A DNA stretch of 64,000 nucleotides from a virus (taxonomy: Duplodnaviria; Heunggongvirae; Uroviricota; Caudoviricetes). The notes under the pieces were generated by a model that did not search any database, was not told the DNA's origin, and was given only the letters and a program-made list of their open reading frames with translations. The stretch spans positions 96,380 to 160,379 of the IMG/VR virus record IMGVR_UViG_3300027861_000012. One strand, written 5' to 3'. Of this stretch, positions 35,130-56,182 are shown one piece after another; the stretch's first letter is position 1, and each line of letters begins with the position of its first letter. Both the position numbers and the translations under genes were made by a program.

Positions 35130-35921
35130 TCAATACTCGTAGTCCACAACAACAACGTCGTTTGCCGCAGCGGGACCGGGTGAATGCAAGTTGAACGTGA
35201 ATGTGACCACGCCAGTTGAATACACAACGGTATAATCGTTGCTTGCTCCCTCACGCTGCCGTACACCATTCAGATACACCCGTTCTGTACCCGAGGCTAC
35301 CGGAAGGTTGGACAAAGCAGCAATGGCCGCTGCACCATTGGTGACAGCAGGTTCTTCATTGTAGACATGTGTGTTACCAGAAGACACGTTGGAGAATTTG
35401 GCCCACAGCAACGTGTGTGTTGCGATTGTGGCCGCACCGGCATCGTTGGTAACCACCCAAGCGGTATCAGCATACGCTGTGCCTTCTTCAACAAGAGTTG
35501 CATAGCTGGAGGCATCGGCTCCGGTTGGCCAGTCGGCGGCTCGTGTCCATGCTCCAGAGTGGGCAATCCATACACCATTCTCTGTGGCTGTGGACTGCTG
35601 AGTGAGAAGAACTCGATCCCCATCAGCATCAACATCGATTCCGTCAATGGTGAGGGCCAAACCAGAGAGGCTGGCTTCATTTGCCACTGCGATAACCTTG
35701 ACAGATTCCTTCCAAGAATTTCCGTTGACCAAGTTGTCAACGTAAGATTTGATCGTGTAGTCATTGGCATTGACAGGTACATCACCACCGGTGATCACAG
35801 CATCGTTGCTACCATTGGAGTGATTCCAATCACTACCGGCTGTGAAGTCGGCTTCCAAACGACCGACATCAATGGTGTTAGCCTTAATCTGAGACTTCCC
35901 GCGAATCATCGTAACAGCCAT
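35130..35921 (-). CDS. Virion fibre/collar-like structural protein (263 aa)
   Basis: KSYVD..VNGNSWKESVKV...LSGL..TIDG...GDRVLLTQQ..ATENGVW...GAWTRAAD, a common phage fibre-base motif, plus C-terminal VYLNGVRQ..NDYTV module. Confidence 0.6.
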   Translation of the reverse strand: MAVTMIRGKSQIKANTIDVGRLEADFTAGSDWNHSNGSNDAVITGGDVPVNANDYTIKSYVDNLVNGNSWKESVKVIAVANEASLSGLALTIDGIDVDADGDRVLLTQQSTATENGVWIAHSGAWTRAADWPTGADASSYATLVEEGTAYADTAWVVTNDAGAATIATHTLLWAKFSNVSSGNTHVYNEEPAVTNGAAAIAALSNLPVASGTERVYLNGVRQREGASNDYTVVYSTGVVTFTFNLHSPGPAAANDVVVVDYEY

Positions 35922-36834: not shown

Positions 36835-38208
36835 TCAGCCCAAGACCACGCAAGCGAGGTCCTCATCCAGCATAGCGACACCACACAGCATGTCCAGGGT
36901 CACGATTGTGCCCTGAGCATTGATGTCGTACTGCATCGAGACACGCATGGCAACGTCATTGTAGACGCCAACCTGCGAACGAACACCCGTGTCGGCCGGT
37001 GGCAACGCCAGCGGACGAGAAACGAGAGCCAGCGAATCCCGATGGAACGCCAGGTTCATAGAACCAGCCGGGCCAGGATAGGCTTCAGCATCGTTGACGA
37101 GAGCGACTTCGAGGGGACGATCAAGCAGGAGGTCACCACCATCGGCTTCGATGATCGTGTACACTCGGCGGCTTGCGCCTGAACCGAACGCGATCAACTG
37201 GCCAACCTGTGGGGCATTCGTGTAGCCATCCACGTTGACTTCCTTGGCCCAATCAACGGCAAAACCGCCATTGACTGCACACTTCTTGTACGCCCGAACC
37301 ACACTGGCTGCGGCAACCGCATTGGCCAGGGGTGCGCTGAGTGTCACGGCAGTCGTGTCACCTGTGGCGACTGTTGCGGCAGTAGCGTAGGTCGGTTGAC
37401 CATCGTCTTCCATCACAACATACTCACCAGCACTGACACCATGACCGACGATGCTCACAGCTTGAGAAGCAGCCACACCAGCCGCAGCGGCGTTGGTGAC
37501 TGTACCTTCGGCAACGTCAGAGTTGACGTTCAGAATGCCGGGGGTGTTCTGGTCCATGTAGGTATCGAAACCAAGGACCCGACCCAGGCTCGCGTCACGC
37601 AGGGCAGTACCCTGGTCACCACGCTTCTCGGCCGAAATGAAGAGGTCGTTCTTCAACATCTGGGTTTCCGCTTGCGGGCTCAACACGAGGTTACGGCCGT
37701 TCGGATACGCCTTGTTGATGTTCATCTTTTCGCGGGCTTCCAAGAGCACGTCCTTGGCGTTGGACGAATGGAGACCGTTGAGCTTGCCAACAGCATTCGG
37801 CAGGAACTGGTGAACGCGACCCAGGAGGCAGCGATCCACAGATCGGGCAATCCCCTGCATACCGGGCAGGAGGTAGATCTCGATCAGATCCTGGAAGGAC
37901 TTGCTGGCTTCGCCGTCCTTGATGGTGAACGAAATGTAGAAGTGCTGGTCCAGCGGAACCCGCACGTTCGTGGCGCTCGCGTCCTGGAGCGTGATGTTAT
38001 CCTGGTCAGTCTTTCTCTTCGACCGGAATGTACCGGGCCGACGAGTATTGACCACATCACCGTATTCGGCCACAATGGGCTCGAAGTCACGGTGGACGAG
38101 ACGGGACATGACCATGTTCTCTTCGAGAATGGCCAGACCTTCCATTGCCCACATCTCGGGGATGAGGGCATTGTTGTCGTTAGCGTAGCAAACTTTGAAA
38201 GGATTCAT
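36835..38208 (-). CDS. Major capsid protein, P22 coat-protein type (457 aa)
   Basis: LIPEMWA.E.L.ILEENMV..RLVHRDF, GDVVNTRRP, V.LDQH...SFTI.D, NLAFHRDSLALVSRPL, MRV...YD, LD.LCGVA.L; SD GGAG; preceded by scaffold, no prohead protease nearby. Confidence 0.9.
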   Translation of the reverse strand: MNPFKVCYANDNNALIPEMWAMEGLAILEENMVMSRLVHRDFEPIVAEYGDVVNTRRPGTFRSKRKTDQDNITLQDASATNVRVPLDQHFYISFTIKDGEASKSFQDLIEIYLLPGMQGIARSVDRCLLGRVHQFLPNAVGKLNGLHSSNAKDVLLEAREKMNINKAYPNGRNLVLSPQAETQMLKNDLFISAEKRGDQGTALRDASLGRVLGFDTYMDQNTPGILNVNSDVAEGTVTNAAAAGVAASQAVSIVGHGVSAGEYVVMEDDGQPTYATAATVATGDTTAVTLSAPLANAVAAASVVRAYKKCAVNGGFAVDWAKEVNVDGYTNAPQVGQLIAFGSGASRRVYTIIEADGGDLLLDRPLEVALVNDAEAYPGPAGSMNLAFHRDSLALVSRPLALPPADTGVRSQVGVYNDVAMRVSMQYDINAQGTIVTLDMLCGVAMLDEDLACVVLG

Positions 38209-39302: not shown

Positions 39303-39815
39303 TTACGAAACCCTACTCATCTTAATTGCGTCACTATCCCGTAAGAGCGGCTTGAGAAGTCGCCATGCAGTCGCGCTCGGCACACCGTTCATCAAGTGTT
39401 CAATCGAGATATTGGCACGGTTGTAGGTCGTCCGTACCGACGCATACCCTTGGCTTACAATTCCAAGGTTTTCCAATTCTGCATCAGGGTCCACGCCGTC
39501 AAGAAGTGCGTGCGCGATCTCGTAACAAGCTTGCTTGATTTCAACAAGCACTTCAGTATCAGTGTCACGAGGGAACTCTAATGCTTGTGCGGCCTCTGCT
39601 GCCCGGATTTGCGTTGGTGTTGCATCCGGGTTGTTTTCCAGCAGTTCATAGACCGAACGTTTACACCCATCAAAATTCAGGGTGTCAATGATTCGTGTAG
39701 CTTGCAGCAACGCCTTCGGTCTGTCCGAAGCCCTAGCAGTAGACCAGGCCCGCTCATGAAGACGTTCTTCAAAATAGGCTTGTGCTTCAATAACTGTGGC
39801 GTATGCTGTGCTCAT
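39303..39815 (-). CDS. Head-tail adaptor (DnaT-like domain type), 170 aa
   Basis: YATVIEAQAYF..R....W, KALLQATRIID, QALEFPR, EIKQACYEIA. Confidence 0.65.
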   Translation of the reverse strand: MSTAYATVIEAQAYFEERLHERAWSTARASDRPKALLQATRIIDTLNFDGCKRSVYELLENNPDATPTQIRAAEAAQALEFPRDTDTEVLVEIKQACYEIAHALLDGVDPDAELENLGIVSQGYASVRTTYNRANISIEHLMNGVPSATAWRLLKPLLRDSDAIKMSRVS

Positions 39816-42135: not shown

Positions 42136-43809
42136 TTAGAGAAACTTGCTAATGTCTTCATGAGTTGTACGGGATGCCGCAAATGGTAGAGCAATTTCAC
42201 AATATGTCCGAGCGTGGGCAAAGTGGTCCGGGCCTGTTTCCGTGTAGATTGCCTTCGCGTTTCCAAGCTCGTCTTTTTCATACGTTCGCGCTGGGGACAT
42301 GATTTGGTCTTTGTATTGTTCGGATGTATCGCGTGGCAAGAGAATACGTCCAGGGACATGAAAACGACCTAATGCGGCGTCTATCCAATTTGTACGATCC
42401 ACAGTAGCAATTGGGGCATCAGTTTCATCATCTTGGATTGAAATTTCCTTCCCTGTGATTCCGCGTCGATAACGGCAAAGTGTAACAAATCCTGGGAAGC
42501 GTCGTGCAAAGCGTCGTACTTCATTGATTTGTGGGTCGGCGTCTACGACACAATGTAGAATTTGCCATTCTCGCATCAGTTGATCTGCAATGTGCCATTC
42601 GTCTTCGGTGAATGTTCCTTCCCATAGAACTTTTGCCACCGCAGCAACATTCAGGTCTCTTCCCCATTCCTCAAAAAACCATTCCGTGATCTCAACGTAG
42701 TTCCATTTTCCTTGATCCAACCCCATGGTAATCAGTCGTGCCGAATTAGTTGGTCTTGGGTCGCTTTTGGTGTGGCCACAAATACAATTGGCGATCATCT
42801 CATCATCGACTTGTCCGCCGGATGGGACATACGGCAGCCCCAATTTCGAGTTGTTAAATTCGACTCCAGCCGATTCGTCCCCCAAACCTCGAAAATGAGC
42901 GATAACCATGTCGCTCGGTTTCACCGTAAACGAGTACAACTGGTTGATGTGGAATCCACGGTTGTCTGGGTTGTGCGGAACTGTTGGAACCCATTTTGCA
43001 CCTGCTAACCATTCAGGTTTTTCTGCTTGTACCAAATGACCCTTGCATTCTTTGCAAATTAGCCGTGAATTCAAACACTCGGGGTCCCTTACAGACTCAC
43101 CATGGATTTCCATACAATCTGGCCAGATCAGTTCCGTCCATCTACCGCACCGAGGACATTGGAATTTGTATTCCTCTTGTGTGCTATCGAGGAACAGTTT
43201 GTGAACTCCCTTTTTGGGTACGGTGGGAGTTGAAACTGCACAGATATGTTTCTCCAGTTTTCCGCTTAAACGTTCCAGTGCCAACCAAATCTGCTTCTGA
43301 TCCATCCTGTCTACTTCGTCCAAGATTAGCTCAGACACGGGGATGGATACTAGGTTGCTGTCTCCACGCGATCCTCTGATGTAGAGGCATGTGCCTCCGG
43401 CTTGTTTCAACCCTACTGTGTTGGTATCAGTAAAGATGTCTTTGAGATAGGGGCTGAGAACCAATGCGCCACCAAAACGTGCTTTTGAAAAGTCAGACGC
43501 AGTGACGGCGGTCGGAAGAACATACAGTACGTCTCGTTTCAGGACATCAATGGTGTAAAATGCGCGGTTGATGGCAACTTCCGTGACCCCCATCTGGGCA
43601 GCCTTCATCGCAGTATTCCAGGTAGCCTGCGAGTCATGAATCTCTCGGCACCAAGGGTGCAACCTGAACGAAAATGGCAGCGAAATCGTAGGGTCTTCTA
43701 TGGTGGGGATGATCCTTCGATACTCAGCCCACCTGGAGCACGATGTAAGTGTTTTACTACGTAGTCCGGAGGAGATCGATTCTGCAAATTCGTCTGCGAG
43801 CTTGTTCAT
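42136..43809 (-). CDS. terL: Terminase large subunit, lambda gpA type (about 557 aa)
   Basis: Walker A KAAQMGVTE, Walker B ILDEVD, STPT, CPRCG...CKEC zinc motif, nuclease MGLDQG and DHFAHA. Start placed at ATG 43809. Confidence 0.9.
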   Translation of the reverse strand: MNKLADEFAESISSGLRSKTLTSCSRWAEYRRIIPTIEDPTISLPFSFRLHPWCREIHDSQATWNTAMKAAQMGVTEVAINRAFYTIDVLKRDVLYVLPTAVTASDFSKARFGGALVLSPYLKDIFTDTNTVGLKQAGGTCLYIRGSRGDSNLVSIPVSELILDEVDRMDQKQIWLALERLSGKLEKHICAVSTPTVPKKGVHKLFLDSTQEEYKFQCPRCGRWTELIWPDCMEIHGESVRDPECLNSRLICKECKGHLVQAEKPEWLAGAKWVPTVPHNPDNRGFHINQLYSFTVKPSDMVIAHFRGLGDESAGVEFNNSKLGLPYVPSGGQVDDEMIANCICGHTKSDPRPTNSARLITMGLDQGKWNYVEITEWFFEEWGRDLNVAAVAKVLWEGTFTEDEWHIADQLMREWQILHCVVDADPQINEVRRFARRFPGFVTLCRYRRGITGKEISIQDDETDAPIATVDRTNWIDAALGRFHVPGRILLPRDTSEQYKDQIMSPARTYEKDELGNAKAIYTETGPDHFAHARTYCEIALPFAASRTTHEDISKFL

Positions 43810-43920
43810 GCATTGTATGGGAGACTGGCCAAGACTCGCTCTGCCGCACAACGGTCACGTTTAATAGTTGGACGGTTGTTTGGATACTGGCGTTCATTCT
43901 TGCCAATCTCTTGTTCGGGG

Positions 43921-44382
43921 TTATTTCTTCTTGCCCTTTTTGGCTTCTTCCTTGATCTCCTCAGCCAGCTTCTTAGGCGAAACGGGTTTTGGGGCCACTG
44001 AGAACAGTGGTTTGGGCTTCACGACTTCAGCGGAAAGTGGTTCCATCCGATCCATTGACTCCAGTGGTTCCAATGACTCCAATGGCTTCGGTTCCGGCTT
44101 CGGTTCCGGCTTCGGTTCCGGCTTCGGTTCCGGCTTCGGTTCCGGCTCCACTGTGCCAGCACTGATCCATTGGTCATCACGACGGACCCAACCGGTGTCG
44201 GTTGGTTTCCCCTGGTCAGACATAGGGATACATCGAATGACATTCGCCACGGCCCCGGCTGGGATCGCAACTTCAACCTCTCGAATTTCGGCAGCGAATG
44301 CACTGCATTCGAGGGTATGTTTGTCATCCAATTCGACTTCAATTCGTACCAGACTTTGTGTTCTTGGAAGATCGAGTTTCAT
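43921..44382 (-). CDS. Hypothetical protein with (PEPK)n linker (153 aa)
   Basis: SD GAGGAGG; N-terminus paralogous to 44426..44689. Confidence 0.7.
   Translation of the reverse strand: MKLDLPRTQSLVRIEVELDDKHTLECSAFAAEIREVEVAIPAGAVANVIRCIPMSDQGKPTDTGWVRRDDQWISAGTVEPEPKPEPKPEPKPEPKPEPKPLESLEPLESMDRMEPLSAEVVKPKPLFSVAPKPVSPKKLAEEIKEEAKKGKKK
44084..44143. repeat. 12-bp tandem repeat GGCTTCGGTTCC x5 (encodes PEPK)
   Basis: Five perfect copies read directly. Confidence 0.95.
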
Positions 44383-44425
44383 GTTTGTTTACCTCCTCGG
44401 GTAATGCTAGTTGGTAGTTTGATGT

Positions 44426-44689
44426 TTATGGTGTCGTAACGTCAACATCGACTGAATGTGTCATCAGATTGGGGCGTTCCCAAACACTGTTTTTCAGGAC
44501 CCAGCCTTCACCGGCACGTTGATCATCAACGGACGGGTAGCATTCGATTAGTTCCACGGTACCGGCTGGCAGAACTACATCGATTTGCCGAATCTCGTTG
44601 GCAAACGCCTCTACCACTACCGGAGCCTCACCGGCAACTTTGATCTCGACACGTACAGTACCATCATATTCTGGGAGTGCAATAATCAT
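44426..44689 (-). CDS. Hypothetical protein, paralog of 43921..44382 (87 aa)
   Basis: VEAFANEIRQIDVVLPAG vs CSAFAAEIREVEVAIPAG; DDQRAGEGW vs DQGKPTDTGW. Confidence 0.65.
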   Translation of the reverse strand: MIIALPEYDGTVRVEIKVAGEAPVVVEAFANEIRQIDVVLPAGTVELIECYPSVDDQRAGEGWVLKNSVWERPNLMTHSVDVDVTTP

Positions 44690-44692
44690 GAT

Positions 44693-44995
44693 TTACCCTT
44701 CAGTGGGGTCATCGAGAAAGGCCAACAACATGAGAATGAAGCGAATAATCTCAGGGAGATTCTCCACAATCCAATCAACCCATGCTCGCCAATCAATGTC
44801 AATTTCTGTTAATTCGAGTTCTAACCGAACCCACTTCTCTACTTTGAGAAGTACGTTGATCATCCGACCCGAACCTGGGTCAACTCGCATGGGCTGATCA
44901 ATGACCCGTTGAAGCAACCGAAGACGCGCCCGTGGGAACATCTTGTTACGACTCGCCTGTAGGCGAGCTTCTTGCAAAGCTACTTTGAATGTCAT
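44693..44995 (-). CDS. Protein with amphipathic hydrophobic C-terminus (100 aa)
   Basis: ATG 1 nt after the thioredoxin stop; C-terminal IDWRAWVDWIVENLPEIIRFILMLLAFL. Confidence 0.65.
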   Translation of the reverse strand: MTFKVALQEARLQASRNKMFPRARLRLLQRVIDQPMRVDPGSGRMINVLLKVEKWVRLELELTEIDIDWRAWVDWIVENLPEIIRFILMLLAFLDDPTEG

Positions 44996-44996
44996 G

Positions 44997-45593
44997 TTAC
45001 CAGATGTCATAGTCAGGTTCCTCGGGATCGGGTGGAGTCGGTGGAGTCGGTGGTACATCAGTGGGCTTCTTGAGATATTTCTTCAGAGTTTTGCTGTCCA
45101 TAGTTCCAACAAACTGTTTCACGACTCGTGGTGTTGTTTCTGTTTCTTCAAAGATGATGGTCTGTGGAATTTGGGCCACGTTATACTTCTTCACCATCTC
45201 TGAGTGTTCATCCGTATTGATTAAGGTAACCTTGTATCCAGCTTTCTTCAGGCTCGCCGCGATGGTTTTCATCGTAGTACACTTGGTACACCAGGGAGCC
45301 CAGAAAAGGAACATTTCGTTGGTTACTGGTTTGACCTCTTCCCTGACAAAAAAGGGTCGGTGGGTTTCTCCAACTTCGGATACCCCTCGATGTCCATGTA
45401 CTTGTTGGCCAGTCCCGTCATCTCGGCCATCCGGCGTACCCATTTGATTTTCTTGCCCTTGCTGATATCGAGTAACAAGGTGCGTAGCCATTTCACCAGG
45501 TCTCGCCAGAGGCCCAGTAATTTGAGTTTCTTGCCCATAGTAGACTCCTATGATCAAGCCAAGGGTCAACAGTAGCAGTGTTCGTTTGAACAT
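44997..45593 (-). CDS. Exported/anchored thioredoxin-family protein (198 aa)
   Basis: Signal-like MFKRTLLLLTLGLIIGVYY; FWAPWCTKC CxxC; INTDEH..MVKKYNVAQIPQTII cis-Pro loop. Confidence 0.85.
   Translation of the reverse strand: MFKRTLLLLTLGLIIGVYYGQETQITGPLARPGEMATHLVTRYQQGQENQMGTPDGRDDGTGQQVHGHRGVSEVGETHRPFFVREEVKPVTNEMFLFWAPWCTKCTTMKTIAASLKKAGYKVTLINTDEHSEMVKKYNVAQIPQTIIFEETETTPRVVKQFVGTMDSKTLKKYLKKPTDVPPTPPTPPDPEEPDYDIW
45323..45538 (-). CDS. Nested +1-frame ORF inside thioredoxin gene (71 aa, amphipathic basic)
   Basis: Own SD AGGAG 6 nt before ATG; G/C-ending codons dominate in this frame; C CCT TTT slippery heptamer near its end. Confidence 0.55.
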   Translation of the reverse strand: MGKKLKLLGLWRDLVKWLRTLLLDISKGKKIKWVRRMAEMTGLANKYMDIEGYPKLEKPTDPFLSGKRSNQ

Positions 45594-45595
45594 TG

Positions 45596-46597
45596 TCACC
45601 AAATCCTGTAATCGTCGATGTCCTGTCTAGGATAACCAACGTAACCACTCAAAGCAAAGCTATCACCTTGCTTGAGTGCCATTTCGATGTTTTTCGCATC
45701 GGCCCAAAATGAACCTTCAGGTTGTTCGTGTCGCGTTGGCCCGCTTACCCAGTTGTGTCCCCATGAATTTTGGATACAACCACCTTTACGTTCCGATTGA
45801 TTATCGATTGCAATCAGAAGCATGGCGTGCATCCATGGTCGTCCGCGCCTCAAGAAACCAGCTTTGTCTCGTTTGTTGGTATAACCAATTGAACTACAGA
45901 GTGTAACTGGGTAGCCGTTTGCAACACAGTCACAAGCTTCGTCCCAATTGGTGACCAACTTTGCTGTCCGTACCGGATGCAACTTGGTCAGTGGTTCTAA
46001 ATCATTGGGGACACCCTTTGCCCCCAATTCGCGTGCCTTGAAACCATTGTAGAATGTGAAGTCATACTTCCCATTCAAGTAAGGTTGTCTCAGCAGTGAG
46101 CCGTATTGCTCACAGTAGTCTTTGGCCCACGTACCCATTGAGCCATCACCACGCAGGCCGCCTCCGATTTCAACACGCGAACCAGCGTAAATAATCTCAG
46201 TAGCGGCTTTTGCAATCCACTGCTCTTGGCTATTGAAGAGAGTCATCTGGATTGCTGTTAGCATATCCACGCCGAGTGCCCATGCATGTGAGACACAGTC
46301 ACCAATCTCTTGGATATGCGGTACTAGCGGCCCACCAGTGATGTGCTCAAACAGCTTCCAGAGTAAGACTTTCTTGTTACGGCCAGAGCCCTTGATTGCT
46401 TGGTTGTGCTGTGAGAACAGCGGACGATGTGTGTTGTTGAATGCATGTTGCCGAGCAGCCTTGTTGTCCAACCAGCCTGCAAAGATCGGGCTCTTCTGAC
46501 TTTCGGCGGCATAGACTTGCTGCAAGATAGGGTTATTGAAAATGGCACCAAGCGATGCAACCCCAGATGTCTTCAAAAAGTCTCGGCGTGTGAACAT
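45596..46597 (-). CDS. Tat-exported papain-like (C1) cysteine protease (333 aa)
   Basis: Exact Tat consensus TRRDFLK; QEIGDCVS (Cys), WMHAM (His), IQNSWG (Asn). Confidence 0.85.
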   Translation of the reverse strand: MFTRRDFLKTSGVASLGAIFNNPILQQVYAAESQKSPIFAGWLDNKAARQHAFNNTHRPLFSQHNQAIKGSGRNKKVLLWKLFEHITGGPLVPHIQEIGDCVSHAWALGVDMLTAIQMTLFNSQEQWIAKAATEIIYAGSRVEIGGGLRGDGSMGTWAKDYCEQYGSLLRQPYLNGKYDFTFYNGFKARELGAKGVPNDLEPLTKLHPVRTAKLVTNWDEACDCVANGYPVTLCSSIGYTNKRDKAGFLRRGRPWMHAMLLIAIDNQSERKGGCIQNSWGHNWVSGPTRHEQPEGSFWADAKNIEMALKQGDSFALSGYVGYPRQDIDDYRIW

Positions 46598-46608
46598 TCT
46601 CTACTCCT

Positions 46609-47532
46609 TTATCGACTGACAGCTTCCTCTTCCGGTGACGCCCCGGCTTTGATGATATCCTTCTTGTTGGAAGGACCAGCATACTTGTTCAATGCCATCC
46701 CGATCTTCTTCCACAGCTTCTCGTGGTCATCCGCAGTTTTCAGAGTACCTGCTTGGGAACGTGCAACAATTTCAGTCTGGAGGTTTTCCATAAATGGTGT
46801 CCAAACCTCAGACCTGTGCCCCAAGGCCGTTCGACTTGATTCCTTAGTAGCAGCCGCAACCTTGTTGACTGGAATCACTCCGGCTTTGATTTGAGCCGCA
46901 ATACTGTTGAAGCTTTGACCCAAACGAGCACAGTCACCTTTATTGGCGCTCATTGAATCCAGCCAGTACGCAACCTTGGTTTCAATCGGGGCGTTTGGAT
47001 TAACCGGTTCTGGATTCGGTGGATTGGGCCCTGGCGCGGGTGGATCAGGATACTGATTCAATACGCGGATCACAATGATCTTGTGGTCCAGTTCCTCCGC
47101 TGAGGCACAACATGACACAAAGAAGGTATAGTCGCCGGGAACACCGCTGGAGAATACGGCAATTTGGCCATCATTGAATACACGGAAATTCTTTGTCTTC
47201 GGCATCACGCTCCATTTGTATTTTGTTCCAGAACTCTGCGTCACATCAATGAATACCAGTTGTCCGATTTTGACTTCAAGTTCAGTTTCGACAACCAGCA
47301 TCGAATCCTCATCTTGCATGACCAATGACAAATCAGCATCGGTATCAACAATCTGTGCGCGAACTGTCATAGATGACGAAGTAAGGATTTTCGGTTGCTG
47401 TGTCAACAGTATTTGGGCATCCGACACCGCTGTCTTTGGCGGTACTTCAGTTGGGTAATAGTTTGAAACTGTAAAGATGCTGGCAACCACCAACATCACA
47501 CTGAAAATCGTAGTTGTGATTGCTCTTTTCAT
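46609..47532 (-). CDS. Exported protein: signal anchor, PKD/Ig-like domain, Pro-rich linker, helical C-domain (307 aa)
   Basis: Hydrophobic N-terminus; YKWSV...AVFSSGVPGDYTFFVSC; PDPPAPGPNPPNPEP. Confidence 0.7.
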   Translation of the reverse strand: MKRAITTTIFSVMLVVASIFTVSNYYPTEVPPKTAVSDAQILLTQQPKILTSSSMTVRAQIVDTDADLSLVMQDEDSMLVVETELEVKIGQLVFIDVTQSSGTKYKWSVMPKTKNFRVFNDGQIAVFSSGVPGDYTFFVSCCASAEELDHKIIVIRVLNQYPDPPAPGPNPPNPEPVNPNAPIETKVAYWLDSMSANKGDCARLGQSFNSIAAQIKAGVIPVNKVAAATKESSRTALGHRSEVWTPFMENLQTEIVARSQAGTLKTADDHEKLWKKIGMALNKYAGPSNKKDIIKAGASPEEEAVSR

Positions 47533-47765
47533 TGTGGGTCCTCTACTTCTACTGATCTGTGCAGAGCTACTGCTTGACTATAGCCTGAGTGCCGCATTTG
47601 ATCCGTGGCCCAGCAATTTTCGCAACGATCCTCGTTTGAAAGTGTCACTGGGTTCTCACATCCCGGTTTAGTGCAATATAGTGTCAGGCCGACTCGCCTA
47701 ATGGGTTCACTGGTTGGTTCTGATTTGGGTGACGCTTGGATACCTTTTCTGAAATACCGTGTCAT
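47529..47765 (-). CDS. Small Cys-rich (zinc-finger-like) protein (78 aa)
   Basis: SD GGAG before ATG 47765; CTKPGC...CENC. Confidence 0.5.
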   Translation of the reverse strand: MTRYFRKGIQASPKSEPTSEPIRRVGLTLYCTKPGCENPVTLSNEDRCENCWATDQMRHSGYSQAVALHRSVEVEDPQ

Positions 47766-47904
47766 ACTAGCTCCAACTTTAACTCCACCCCCAAGGGTCG
47801 GGAGCGGCACCCAAGAACCGCTCCCGACCCACCGACATGCGACGTGTCTACAGCCAAAACACGCCTTCCGACCTCACCCTGGGGCAGGGCAGTCGGTTAA
47901 TCGA

Positions 47905-48090
47905 TCAGACAATGGGCTTGCTGGTGACGAATCGCAACGCGATATTCAAAGCACCAACGACGGCACCAAAGATGGCCACAACCTGTGGGTATTCCTGGAT
48001 GACGGCATGACCCTGCATATAGCCAAGGACACCGGCACCGAGTACCAACATGTTGACCCACAACGTTTTCGATTTGAGAGGATTTTTCAT
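47905..48090 (-). CDS. Small two-TM holin-like protein (61 aa)
   Basis: KSKTLWVN...two hydrophobic helices...NIALRFVTSKP, a recurrent small phage membrane-protein pattern; ATGA-coupled to terS. Confidence 0.6.
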   Translation of the reverse strand: MKNPLKSKTLWVNMLVLGAGVLGYMQGHAVIQEYPQVVAIFGAVVGALNIALRFVTSKPIV

Positions 48091-48623
48091 GAATCTTCGC
48101 TCCTTTGTTCAGTGATATTTTGCACAATCCGTTTGGAAATACGGTCTACGATTTCTTCGTAGCCCGGAACATCTTGTAGTTCTTCAACGATGATTTCGAC
48201 GATTTGCCGACCCATGACGAGCACGGATGACTTGGCGAGGAGGGAGCCAAGATTCTGTTCAATAGCGTGGGCGCTTCTTACGAGTCTCTCAACAGTGAGG
48301 AGGAGTGTGTTGAGACCGCCGATGGCGGCTAGCAGATCGCTCTCGCATTTGATAGCATTGAAACGCTCTTCGATCAGCATCCGAGTGATAGAGATTTCTT
48401 CCCGCAGGGATTTGATCTCCTCATGCTCGACAAAACGGGTCAGCTTTTCTCGATGTTTCATCTGATCCAGATGATACATATGGGTATTGGCACGCTTAGC
48501 TGATGCGGTACTCCCTGAGTGAATCTCACAGAAGTCATACCCATCAACCACATCTCGGTGGCATTGTTTCTGGTCGCCGGTGTATTTACAGCGATTGGGG
48601 CGTGCTGGATCAGCTTTTGCCAT
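48087..48623 (-). CDS. terS: Terminase small subunit (putative, 178 aa)
   Basis: First late gene, SD AGGAGG; N-terminal C..C...C..H(S)G zinc-like motif then SLREEISITR helix. Confidence 0.6.
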   Translation of the reverse strand: MAKADPARPNRCKYTGDQKQCHRDVVDGYDFCEIHSGSTASAKRANTHMYHLDQMKHREKLTRFVEHEEIKSLREEISITRMLIEERFNAIKCESDLLAAIGGLNTLLLTVERLVRSAHAIEQNLGSLLAKSSVLVMGRQIVEIIVEELQDVPGYEEIVDRISKRIVQNITEQRSEDS

Positions 48624-48990: not shown

Positions 48991-49044
48991 ATGTGAGGGA
49001 TCAAACCCTTACGTGGATGCGTGCGGGGGTCAAACCCCGCACGC
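48991..49044 (+). promoter_or_regulatory. Tandem hairpins sharing an RTCAAA loop in the early leader
   Basis: ATGTGAGGG-ATCAAA-CCCTTACGT and GCGTGCGGGG-GTCAAA-CCCCGCACGC. Confidence 0.5.
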
Positions 49045-54286: not shown

Positions 54287-55328
54287 TCTACGTGCGCGGG
54301 CTACCCAGCTTCTGAAAGCCTACGGGTTTGAGGCAAAGCTCAAAGAACTGCACCAACTGGAATCTCAGATGGTGAATCCCGCTCTTTGTATGACGTTACC
54401 AACGACTGTTTTACAAAAACATGGCGAGCTTGCAGCCGAGTTGGTTCCATGGGTGTATATTCTGAATCAACGCGAGGCATTAGACTCCATGCGGGACCAT
54501 CTTGATGGCTTCTCTGAGGATGTTTTGGACTTCGAGAAGATAATCGACAGCCTCGAATTCAAAGCCATGATGTCGGACAAAAATGCCCGTAAGTCAGCCA
54601 TCCTCACGATACACGCGCGTGACGGTGGTATGGAAGCATGTGACTGGTGCGACATGTTGGCCAGTATGTACACCAAATGGGCGGTTGCTCAAGACTTCGG
54701 GATCGAGCTTGTATCACGACATTCTGGTAAAGGAAATGCCGGCATCTCATCCATGTGCATTGAGATCACTGGGTCATATGCCTATGGGTATCTGTCCGGC
54801 GAGAATGGCCTTCACCGTCTGGTGCGAAGAAGCCCATTCAATGCCCAAGGGAAACGACAAACCAGTTTTGCCTCCGTTCAGGTTGATCCCGTGCTACCAG
54901 TGAAGACCAAAATCATATTGGAGTCAGATTTAGAGTGGGATTTCTTCATAGCACCTGGACCGGGTGGGCAACACAAAAACAAAACCGAGTCTGGGGTACG
55001 TCTCACGCACAAACCTACAGCAGTGACAGTAACTTGTGTCACAGATCGTAGTCAAAACACGAACAAGGCTAACGCCCGTGTGATGCTCGCCGGTCGGCTT
55101 GCCCGCCTACAAGAAGAGCATGATGCTACCACGCGAGCTACACAACGGAACGAGAAACCTACAGTTGGTTTCGGGTCACAAATCCGAAGCTACTTCCTAC
55201 ACCCTAAACAACGTGTCATTGACGCCCGTACTGGGCACAAGTGTGGCAATTTTGATGCTGTGCTTGATGGTAAACTTCAACCATTCCTAGATGCTTATCT
55301 GTTATGGAAAGCCCAACAAGGAGATTGA
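54267..55328 (+). CDS. prfB: Peptide chain release factor 2 (353 aa)
   Basis: GG.EACDW..ML, G.HRLVRRSPF (RF2 SPF anticodon), RQTSFA, GPGGQH.NKTESGVR, GSQIRSY; SD GGAG before ATG 54267. Confidence 0.93.
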   Translation: MTQPYNDLRARATQLLKAYGFEAKLKELHQLESQMVNPALCMTLPTTVLQKHGELAAELVPWVYILNQREALDSMRDHLDGFSEDVLDFEKIIDSLEFKAMMSDKNARKSAILTIHARDGGMEACDWCDMLASMYTKWAVAQDFGIELVSRHSGKGNAGISSMCIEITGSYAYGYLSGENGLHRLVRRSPFNAQGKRQTSFASVQVDPVLPVKTKIILESDLEWDFFIAPGPGGQHKNKTESGVRLTHKPTAVTVTCVTDRSQNTNKANARVMLAGRLARLQEEHDATTRATQRNEKPTVGFGSQIRSYFLHPKQRVIDARTGHKCGNFDAVLDGKLQPFLDAYLLWKAQQGD

Positions 55329-55330
55329 TC

Positions 55331-56182
55331 ATGCGAGCTTTTCTGATTCTGCTACTATGTTTGGTACCTGGTACTCTTGATGCGCAAGAAATCAAGTGCA
55401 AGCACTTTTTTCAGGGGATGCCTAGTGTTGATACTACCCCCTCTGAAATCATCATTCGTGATTGCTATGCACTGCAAACTAATCGGGAAACGAAGTTCCC
55501 AGCTTGGGTAGCATACCGCCTCACACTACGCGAGGTATGTGGTACCCTTGATCTTGGTCGTAAATGGCGTACTGATCCGTGGCTAGCCGCCGATGCCACC
55601 TTGGAAACCAATCGTGATGATTACCGTGGCGCTGCAACCCTGCTGTATGATCGTGGCCACCTGGTTCCGTTGGCGTCCTTCAAAGGCTCACTGAATGCCT
55701 CGCAAGTCAATTACTATTCTGTGATTGCCCCGCAACGCCGAGCTTTGAATCGTGGCCCGTGGCTTGACCTGGAGAATGCTGTTCGTGACCTCGTGTGGTC
55801 TGAAGGATCAGTTTATGTGATCGTAGGCCCACTGTACGAGAAGAAAATGGCACCATTGCCTAATGCAGACGAGCCGCATCGCGTACCGTCTGGATTTTGG
55901 ATGATTGTTGCCGCACCAACCGGCGTAAACATTGAGTATGACTCCGGAACTGGCAACTACTCGAATGGAACACAAGCAGTTGGTTTCATTGTGTCACAGG
56001 TGCCAGGCTTGTACAATTCCATCAGGGACTTCATTGTACCCATCCAAGAGATTGAGGCCCGCGCAGCCATTCAAGTCTTTCCGAATATGGACGAGGTTGA
56101 GGCTGCGCGTGTCAAGGGTTCAGTTTCATGGTACTGGATCGACGATACCTTCCTTGAGGGGGACTATTATGTCGAAGAATGA
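55331..56182 (+). CDS. Secreted DNA/RNA non-specific endonuclease (NucA/EndA type, 283 aa)
   Basis: Signal MRAFLILLLCLVPGTLDA; YDRGHL, LNRGPW..LEN.VR, VIVGPLY, VPSGFW. Confidence 0.88.
   Translation: MRAFLILLLCLVPGTLDAQEIKCKHFFQGMPSVDTTPSEIIIRDCYALQTNRETKFPAWVAYRLTLREVCGTLDLGRKWRTDPWLAADATLETNRDDYRGAATLLYDRGHLVPLASFKGSLNASQVNYYSVIAPQRRALNRGPWLDLENAVRDLVWSEGSVYVIVGPLYEKKMAPLPNADEPHRVPSGFWMIVAAPTGVNIEYDSGTGNYSNGTQAVGFIVSQVPGLYNSIRDFIVPIQEIEARAAIQVFPNMDEVEAARVKGSVSWYWIDDTFLEGDYYVEE

Follow-up and report, generated by a model that had tools for sequence, protein, structure and literature searches.

We analysed a 64,000-nucleotide stretch of viral DNA (hereafter, the window) covering positions 96,380 to 160,379 of IMG/VR record IMGVR_UViG_3300027861_000012, a tailed virus of the Caudoviricetes. 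The analysis centred on a compact gene cassette encoding a papain-fold cysteine protease with a twin-arginine translocation (Tat) signal, a thioredoxin, and several small or membrane-directed proteins. The source genome is a single viral contig of 177,656 bp with a CheckV completeness of 100%. The minus strand of the window constitutes the late arm, which runs downwards from ~48.6 kb; the cassette opens this arm and ends at the gene for the large terminase subunit (TerL). All of the cassette open reading frames (ORFs) proposed in a previous sequence-only reading of the window were present on the minus strand, at the following positions.

48087..48623, minus strand: g178, the first late-arm gene, with a Cys/His-rich (zinc-finger-like) N-terminal segment followed by helical sequence
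47905..48090, minus strand: g61, a holin-like protein of 61 aa with two hydrophobic segments
47529..47810, minus strand: g93, a small four-Cys protein with a weak 4-Cys prefix match to NF045510 (E 0.007)
46609..47532, minus strand: g307, a 307-aa protein with an N-terminal transmembrane helix, an Ig/PKD-like beta domain, a Pro-rich linker, and a helical C-domain
45596..46597, minus strand: the protease, a predicted Tat-signal papain-fold (C1-like, xylellain-type) cysteine peptidase of 333 aa
46508..46597, minus strand: the predicted Tat signal peptide of the protease (residues 1-30), which ends in VYA and is followed by AE
46295..46312, minus strand: the protease catalytic motif Q96-E-I-G-D-C101, in which the junction between G-D and C is the intein insertion point in relatives
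45599..45613, minus strand: the protease C-terminal tail D-Y-R-I-W, disordered in the model
44997..45602, minus strand: the thioredoxin, signal-anchored, with C105-T-K-C108, cis-Pro146, a Pro-rich stalk, and a tail like that of the protease
45000..45014, minus strand: the thioredoxin C-terminal tail D-Y-D-I-W, as read from the sequence
44693..45058, minus strand: g121, a small basic protein with a hydrophobic C-terminal segment
44426..44689, minus strand: g87, small, beta-rich, and paralogous to the g153 N-terminal half
43921..44382, minus strand: g153, the g87 paralogue, with a (PEPK)n repeat and a Lys-rich amphipathic C-terminus
42136..43851, minus strand: TerL of the GpA type (PF05876, 4e-28; PF20454, 1e-7; phrog_675, 7.9e-83), the downstream boundary of the cassette

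The cassette genes were tightly packed: neighbours either overlapped by 4 to 7 nt (4 nt for g178/g61 and for g93/g307, 7 nt for protease/thioredoxin) or lay 11 to 94 nt apart, and no convincing minus-strand terminator was found inside the block from g178 to TerL. The g121 ORF overlapped the thioredoxin gene by 62 nt, and its true start is therefore probably internal.

The N-terminus of the protease comprises a Tat motif (MFTRRDFLK), an h-region of moderate hydrophobicity, and an A-x-A cleavage site (VYA/AE, with the slash marking the cut). It passed the NCBIfam Tat model TIGR01409 with 18.3 bits against a cut-off of 16.7 and fell just under the cut-off for PF10518 (21.1 against 22.7). The RR pair of the motif was invariant in 30 of 30 aligned sequences, and the signal motif suggests that the protease is exported by the Tat pathway. 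An AlphaFold 2 (AF2) model built from the alignment of 30 relatives had a predicted local distance difference test (pLDDT) score of 82.8, with values below 50 for the tail (residues 328-333). The best structural match of this model in the PDB was xylellain of Xylella fastidiosa (3OIS; Z 22.5, root-mean-square deviation 2.8 Å, 237 residues aligned); procathepsins and propapain matched at Z ~19, and more than 300 C1 chains matched at Z of at least 8. Foldseek matched the papain fold at E 1.6e-9. The zymogen alignments started at model residues 29-41, so that the segment following the signal overlays the end of the propeptide, and the protease may perhaps be made in a latent form.

Residues R4, R5, Q96, D100, C101, H257, N277, S278, W279, and G280 were invariant in the protease family (30 sequences), and C101 begins the central helix (101-120) of the model. 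The Q96-x4-C101 spacing is one residue shorter than that of papain. Profile alignment paired the H..NSWG residues with the H..NSWG of cathepsin K in a sub-threshold match, and a single-sequence search of the protease against the PDB returned noise only. The window protein did not match PF00112 (Peptidase_C1) at the gathering score. Nine of the 30 relatives matched PF00112, all at E >= 0.0075, and 19 matched Peptidase_C39_2 at E >= 0.0013, also sub-threshold. Because the matches fall below both thresholds, the predicted peptidase is assigned to a distinct family of the papain clan (MEROPS C1 / clan CA). It resembles xylellain in the two-domain papain fold and in the Cys/His/Asn/Gln set, whereas it differs in having ~17% identity to that enzyme, scores below the Pfam C1 thresholds, a Q-C spacing shorter by one residue, a Tat signal, a conserved C-terminal tail, and g307 and thioredoxin as partners. 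Short xylellain-type C1A peptidases are reported to have been acquired by tailed phages, and the phage copies were given no function or context (PMC10380794). Thus, the papain fold, the Tat motif, and the unusual Q-x4-C spacing described in the sequence-only reading were all borne out.

Relatives of the protease were frequently interrupted by inteins. The insertions split the protein exactly before the catalytic Cys (IGD/C) in six loci, where C101 becomes the intein +1 residue, or after NSWG in one locus. All 32 of the longer relatives carried inteins, as did roughly one in four of the 150 top-ranking family representatives. Fusions that could reveal a substrate were sought among the 32 longer relatives, and none was found, these proteins being intein-bearing only. 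The occupancy of these sites points to a catalytically essential, strongly selected protease. Folding and splicing of intein-bearing precursors have to take place in the cytoplasm, consistent with the export of a folded protein by the Tat pathway. The hot-spot loci were L030, L054, L075, L076, L073, L081, and L048 (proteins P0121-P0152). Both mini-inteins and endonuclease-bearing forms occurred at GD/C101 and after NSWG280, and some relatives of ~1,000-1,200 aa matched in three stretches, probably because they contain two inteins each.

The protease family proved to be large. A word-index search returned more than 566 relatives, and an exhaustive profile search identified 1,810 representative clusters (50% identity), 819 of them at E <= 1e-30. 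No homologue was detected in 50,697 GenBank phage records, and the portal protein had a single remote match among GenBank phages, to a pelagiphage. Both the Tat motif and the tail were present in 102 of the 120 nearest relatives. Among 101 protease loci fetched, g307 was directly upstream in 72, TerL was downstream in 79, and the portal gene was downstream in 69; g178 and g61 were found upstream in 30 and 36 loci, respectively, in constant order. The co-occurrence of the cassette genes was confirmed across phages, as the order g307-protease-TerL-portal-major capsid protein (MCP) was kept in ~75 of 80 viral loci and, in a profile search, 75 of 77 synteny loci had a thioredoxin gene no more than 3 kb downstream of the protease gene.

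The gene order after TerL was portal, Ad1-type adaptor, scaffold-sized protein, and P22-type coat protein (PF11651, 1.1e-32; phrog_283, 6e-59). The head genes located in the window were as follows.

39303-39815: Ad1-like adaptor (phrog_477)
36835-38208, minus strand: P22-type major capsid protein, adjoining the head decoration protein
35130-35921, minus strand: head decoration protein (phrog_2647, 2e-24)

The protease gene lies directly upstream of the run TerL-portal-adaptor-scaffold-like-MCP and the wider family mostly lacks a signal, which would fit a capsid or virion maturation protease acting with a thiol oxidoreductase as part of the adjacent head module, the apparent Tat signal being non-functional or otherwise used. 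However, the invariant RR motif and the TIGR01409 score argue against this role, the neighbouring g307 and thioredoxin are also predicted to be exported, and the gene is upstream of TerL rather than between portal and coat, where prohead protease genes usually sit. P22-type coats assemble with recycled scaffold and mature without a protease. Because the coat is of this type, no prohead protease is expected. A role in capsid maturation is therefore very improbable, and virion maturation in the periplasm, which the sequence-only reading had offered as an alternative, is likewise disfavoured by the coat type and by the predicted export of the protease away from the site of capsid assembly.

The protein encoded immediately upstream of the protease, g307, carries an N-terminal hydrophobic signal/anchor and a conserved helical C-domain. 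Its AF2 model (pLDDT 80.8) gave Ig/PKD-like matches at Z ~10 (VIA), in agreement with the signal-anchored PKD/Pro-rich protein expected from the sequence. A signal-less protease from an unrelated 226-kb viral contig likewise has a g307 homologue ahead of it (hhalign 98.6%, E 9.5e-16), and the g307-protease pair is therefore older than the Tat signal. The two hydrophobic segments previously noted in g61 were confirmed. It is a small transmembrane protein, as holins are, and ends in the charged sequence RFVTSKPIV; K2, S7, N13, N49, L52, and R53 were invariant in the family alignment. Three of 26 g61 orthologues matched PHROG families annotated as holin, phrog_4712 (2e-5) or phrog_34682 (1.4e-3).

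The thioredoxin matched PF00085 at 1.7e-11 (44.4 bits; cut-off, 23.5). C105, C108, P146, G166, and Y198 were invariant in its family, and its hydrophobic N-terminus predicts export, as had been proposed. The protease and the thioredoxin end alike, in [DN]-Y-x-[IL]-[WYF]-COOH. Among 8,828 six-frame ORFs of the loci, this motif terminated 65 proteases and 38 thioredoxins, with ~2 occurrences expected by chance, and it also terminated five small membrane proteins that occupy the place of the thioredoxin. In the source genome, the protease and the thioredoxin were the only two of 238 ORFs to end in this way.

Many thioredoxin orthologues were bare domains of 87-100 aa in which the tail was present and the signal absent. 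Within the synteny clade, 34 of 74 orthologues (46%) lacked the hydrophobic N-terminal anchor and lay beside a Tat-signal protein, and 24 of these 34 carried the C-terminal tail as well. After dereplication, the inverse relation between anchor and tail amounted to no more than a trend (odds ratio 0.31, p 0.057), and the rows compared are not phylogenetically independent. Beside short signal-less thioredoxins, a protein of 78-141 aa was encoded between the protease and the thioredoxin (L036:5181-5417, L047:1460-1699, L075:10724-10981, and L034:11038-11463). This protein has an N-terminal hydrophobic/basic helix, W-x-x-x-V/L-W-L-R, which in locus L077 is fused to the thioredoxin, and looks like a split-off membrane-association element.

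A complex of the three proteins was modelled with the protease set against g307 plus the thioredoxin, using a custom alignment. The interaction prediction scores from aligned errors (ipSAE) were 0.61, 0.62, and 0.49, whereas the best control reached 0.02. In the calibration, whose set-up was unlike that of the three-chain model, 58 of 80 solved complexes attained the mark, as did 2 of 110 mismatched pairs. The runs had at least 28% of their contacts in common, and the partner pLDDT was at least 84. The confident contacts joined thioredoxin residues 141-147 (the cis-Pro loop) and 160-168 to protease residues 87-95, beside Q96, and 280-282, beside W279. The model supports an arrangement in which the catalytic face of the thioredoxin, with its substrate groove, sits on the rim of the protease active site. 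In the three-chain model, the confident interface did not include the tails, and g307 did not appear among the confident contacts listed.

We searched the whole 177,656-bp genome in six frames with eleven muralytic Pfam families (PF00959, PF01510, PF01464, PF05838, PF01520, PF00182, PF13539, PF01551, PF05257, PF00877, and PF01183), and no match was obtained. The absence of a recognisable muramidase or amidase, noted earlier for the late arm of the window, thus extends to the entire genome. Phage_lysozyme, Amidase_2, SLT, Peptidase_M15_4, and GH108 were also absent from eight relatives at least 96% complete; the GH108 result carries little weight, since the control genomes gave no match either. 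A weak Amidase_2 match in the relative G008 was spurious and corresponded to a helix-turn-helix protein. No convincing candidate for a spanin-like lipoprotein was found, again as reported before. Among the 120 nearest and 32 longer relatives, no wall-binding domain was fused to the protease; the only additional domains were TAT_signal and inteins.

The best reading of the cassette is that of a lysis-type (envelope-opening) module of this phage clade in which the exported enzyme is a papain-fold protease, because it stands at the head of the late operon, includes a holin-like gene, and encodes predicted exported enzymes in a genome with no known endolysin. The mix of signal-less, Sec-like, and Tat forms in the protease family, a variety also seen among endolysins, fits this reading. 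We give it a probability of about 0.5. As for the substrate, envelope proteins are a possible target, to which the larger part of that figure is tentatively assigned; peptidoglycan stem peptides take the remainder and are the less likely choice.

The second substrate overlaps with a rather unlikely explanation in which the protease would itself represent a new family of muralytic endolysins, as an endopeptidase exported by Tat and directed at the stem peptides or cross-links of peptidoglycan. The thioredoxin would then control or protect the catalytic Cys, by analogy with the disulfide-caged signal-arrest-release endolysin of phage P1, and the cassette would be a holin-endolysin system of the usual kind with an unusual enzyme, contradicting the term non-muralytic used in the sequence-only reading. 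A phage of a peptidoglycan-bearing host must cut the wall, and no other wall hydrolase of the families searched was present in nine complete or near-complete genomes. The structural neighbours of the protease in BFVD, which have the same general fold (Foldseek E 1e-6 to 8e-3), included a peptidoglycan-binding-like protein (484 aa, E 2e-4), an N-acetylmuramidase fragment (385 aa, E 1e-6), a mycobacteriophage Lysin A, and a Gordonia phage endolysin. The sub-threshold Peptidase_C39_2 matches of 19 of the 30 family members point in the same direction. However, the BFVD names are automatic annotations, and the proteins bearing them are less similar to the protease than plain C1 peptidases are. In the PDB, the top-scoring neighbours are without exception true proteinases that have the complete two-domain C1 fold rather than the minimal NlpC/P60 or CHAP fold, and the family has no fused wall-binding domain. 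The envelope-attack part of the sequence-only reading therefore stands as the best supported, whereas its non-muralytic part is unproven and is weakened by these same-fold phage proteins annotated as peptidoglycan-binding, muramidase, or Lysin A.

Under the lysis-type reading, transcription of the late operon would start with the cassette, in the manner of the lambda lysis genes. The papain-fold peptidase would fold in the cytoplasm, where the intein-bearing relatives would also splice, and would then be exported in folded form by the host Tat pathway to the periplasm, where its target would be an envelope constituent made of protein or peptide. The thioredoxin, anchored in the membrane and turning its CxxC side to the rim of the active site, would most plausibly keep or make the catalytic thiol of the protease reduced in the oxidising periplasm, and it may additionally reduce disulfides of the substrate. 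The g307 protein would be an exported Ig/PKD plus helical partner for targeting or regulation, paired with the protease before the Tat signal arose, and g61 would serve as a holin-like timing or membrane component. We infer Tat export, the lysis role, and the substrate, together with the thioredoxin-protease contact, which is a modelled one.

A more speculative and rather doubtful version dispenses with any peptidoglycan hydrolase. Here, a complex of the Tat-exported cathepsin-like protease and the thioredoxin would reduce and digest a disulfide-cross-linked protein layer, which would be the stress-bearing part of the envelope in Planctomycete-like hosts, and the signal-less thioredoxins of many relatives would either travel out together with the protease or dock by means of the common [DN]-Y-x-[IL]-[WYF] tail.

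Several points weigh against a lysis-type module. The holin-like gene and the exported enzymes constitute circumstantial evidence, and the g61 protein of the window itself matched no holin family in Pfam or PHROGs. The absence of known endolysin families is compatible with an unrecognised endolysin among the many unannotated genes or with a virion-borne lysin, either of which may be present. If the host has peptidoglycan, a pure proteinase alone could not breach the wall. A control of the complex model in which g307 was replaced and the thioredoxin kept scored 0.00, indicating that the thioredoxin-protease interface was not robustly reproduced, and no model accounts for the shared tail. The top 150 representatives of the family mostly lack both signal and tail (~33 have the Tat motif and ~16 a Sec-like N-terminus), and some members of the wider family are found among ordinary cellular genes, so the ancestral role may have been cytoplasmic.

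A link to Planctomycetota is a further argument for lysis or envelope attack. Of 18 loci recovered from 185,579 species genomes, 10 belonged to Planctomycetota, suggesting a host in this phylum. Cellular copies of the protease were rare, being detected in 3 of 300 further Planctomycetota genomes and in ~1 of 300 Bacteroidota genomes; the possibility that the protease is a common Planctomycetota gene was ruled out by the former count in the sampled genomes. The chromosome of Planctomicrobium sp. SH661 contained two identical distant homologues of 402 aa with a Sec-like signal (L098 and L099; 496761-497615 and 4806317-4807171). Each had a membrane protein upstream and a TerL gene ~4.5 kb downstream, together with a portal gene, and a single prophage is probably present twice in this cultured Planctomycete. 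For membrane proteins encoded beside signal-less homologues (L083, L070, and L098), comparison with PHROGs yielded nothing useful. Outside the window, in the first 1.6 kb of the genome, a 539-aa ORF (L102:1-1617, minus strand) runs off the contig end. It begins RIEPLESRNLLS, a start that gave a sub-threshold match to the Planctomycete extracellular leader PF07595 (Planc_extracel; E 0.011), and also contains a DUF5050-like beta-propeller region and an acidic Pro-rich repeat. The leader match, being below the Pfam cut-off, is no more than a hint about the host.

The early arm encodes a 292-aa DNA/RNA non-specific endonuclease (Endonuclease_NS; 55304-56182, plus strand; PF01223, 1.3e-32). Its signal-like N-terminus, MESPTRRLIMRAFLILLLCLVPG, predicts that it is a second exported hydrolase of the phage. 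This gene would be in keeping with a broader periplasm-directed programme in which the protease and thioredoxin take over the host envelope, cleaving envelope proteins such as receptors, transporters, or secretion machinery, so that superinfection is blocked, progeny do not adsorb to debris, or the envelope is remodelled during infection. The predicted export of the cassette proteins is consistent with such a role, and Ig/PKD domains commonly bind surface molecules. Nevertheless, genes for exclusion tend to be expressed early or during lysogeny and to show little conservation, whereas this module belongs to a late operon, has a holin-like gene as its neighbour, and occurs almost throughout the clade; in addition, the intein occupancy points to an essential gene. 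We consider takeover or exclusion unlikely.

The exported nuclease, the pairing of a cathepsin-like fold with a thiol reductase, and the Planctomycetota link (the 10 of 18 cellular-genome loci plus the sub-threshold Planc_extracel leader) could also be accommodated by nutrient scavenging, in which phage replication would be fed by periplasmic or imported proteins that the protease and reductase break down in the manner of cathepsin and GILT. The hosts would be organisms such as Planctomycetes, which take macromolecules into an enlarged periplasm. We regard this as quite improbable, given that the genes occupy a late-operon position beside packaging genes, that auxiliary metabolic genes are usually patchy whereas the protease-thioredoxin pair is near-universal in the clade, and that no transporter or peptidase cascade was found nearby.

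The remaining genes of the block were less informative. The sequence-only reading had described the cassette as wedged between terS and terL. TerL itself was confirmed, but the assignment of g178 as terS was dropped, since neither g178 nor its 23 orthologues matched a small terminase (TerS) family in Pfam, PHROGs, or NCBIfam. In the g178 family (24 orthologues), C12, C21, and C32 were invariant and H35 nearly so. The gene is not immediately upstream of TerL; the two are separated by 4.2 kb in the window and by 4 to 12 kb in relatives. The slot just upstream of TerL, where a small terminase is normally expected, is filled by g87 and g153. The former had no family match in Pfam or PHROGs and g153 itself gave low-complexity matches only; g87 and the N-terminal half of g153 matched the same place in L001 and L004. 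Tail-anchored proteins of ~100 aa resembling g121 recurred before TerL in relatives, one of them matching DUF1360 at 2.5e-6, and g93 was present in nine related loci only. A strong 10-bp GC-rich hairpin with nine G-C pairs was present at 49019-49044, where the late (minus) and early (plus) arms diverge. In the 178-kb contig of P0003, a relative with 72% identity, the early-arm neighbours were kept, namely RlaP nucleotidyltransferase, a cysteine desulfurase-like Aminotran_5 protein, a class-I release factor (PCRF/RF-1 domains), NDK, and Thg1.

The cassette resembles the lambda lysis cassette (holin S, endolysin R, and spanins Rz/Rz1): in both, the late operon begins with small membrane proteins and an envelope-directed enzyme, and the packaging genes follow. 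Unlike lambda, it has no known muralytic fold and no spanin-like lipoprotein, a thioredoxin and an Ig/PKD protein are added, and the enzyme is predicted to be exported by Tat rather than released by the holin. Endolysins of the signal-arrest-release (SAR) or signal-peptide type, such as phage P1 Lyz with its disulfide-caged catalytic Cys, are exported before lysis independently of the holin. They are alike in having a catalytic Cys whose periplasmic redox state matters. However, they use Sec, a lysozyme fold, and intramolecular redox control, whereas the present system would use Tat, a papain fold, and a separate thioredoxin predicted at the rim of the active site. Lysosomal cathepsins act with the thiol reductase GILT, a papain-family protease and a CxxC reductase thereby unfolding and digesting disulfide-bonded proteins in an oxidising compartment; this pair belongs to a eukaryotic organelle and the reductases are non-homologous, so the analogy is one of logic only. 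In Tat hitch-hiker export, the hydrogenase small subunit carries the signal-less large subunit. The signal-less thioredoxin orthologues beside a Tat-signal protease, the tail, and the modelled contact are reminiscent of this arrangement, whereas the thioredoxin of the window has its own anchor and the tail lies outside the modelled interface.

Our literature search turned up neither a Tat-exported phage cysteine protease nor an account of lysis by phages of Planctomycetes. New here are the shared tail, the intein sites at the catalytic Cys, the thioredoxin-protease complex model, the P22-type coat, the deep pairing with g307, and the wall-targeting structural neighbours.

Nearly all phage lysis is attributed to a peptidoglycan hydrolase. 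In a very large clade represented by uncultured sequence only, no recognised hydrolase was found, and a conserved, predicted exported papain-type protease and a dedicated thioredoxin occupy the position of a lysis cassette. If the protease is a true lysis enzyme, it would represent either a new class of endolysin whose redox control is external or the first lysis system in which a protease opens protein-rich envelopes. The cassette would then exemplify the presence of inteins in a Tat-exported enzyme, supply a candidate for a short docking motif common to two secreted partners, and offer a handle on the phages of Planctomycetota and similar poorly studied hosts.

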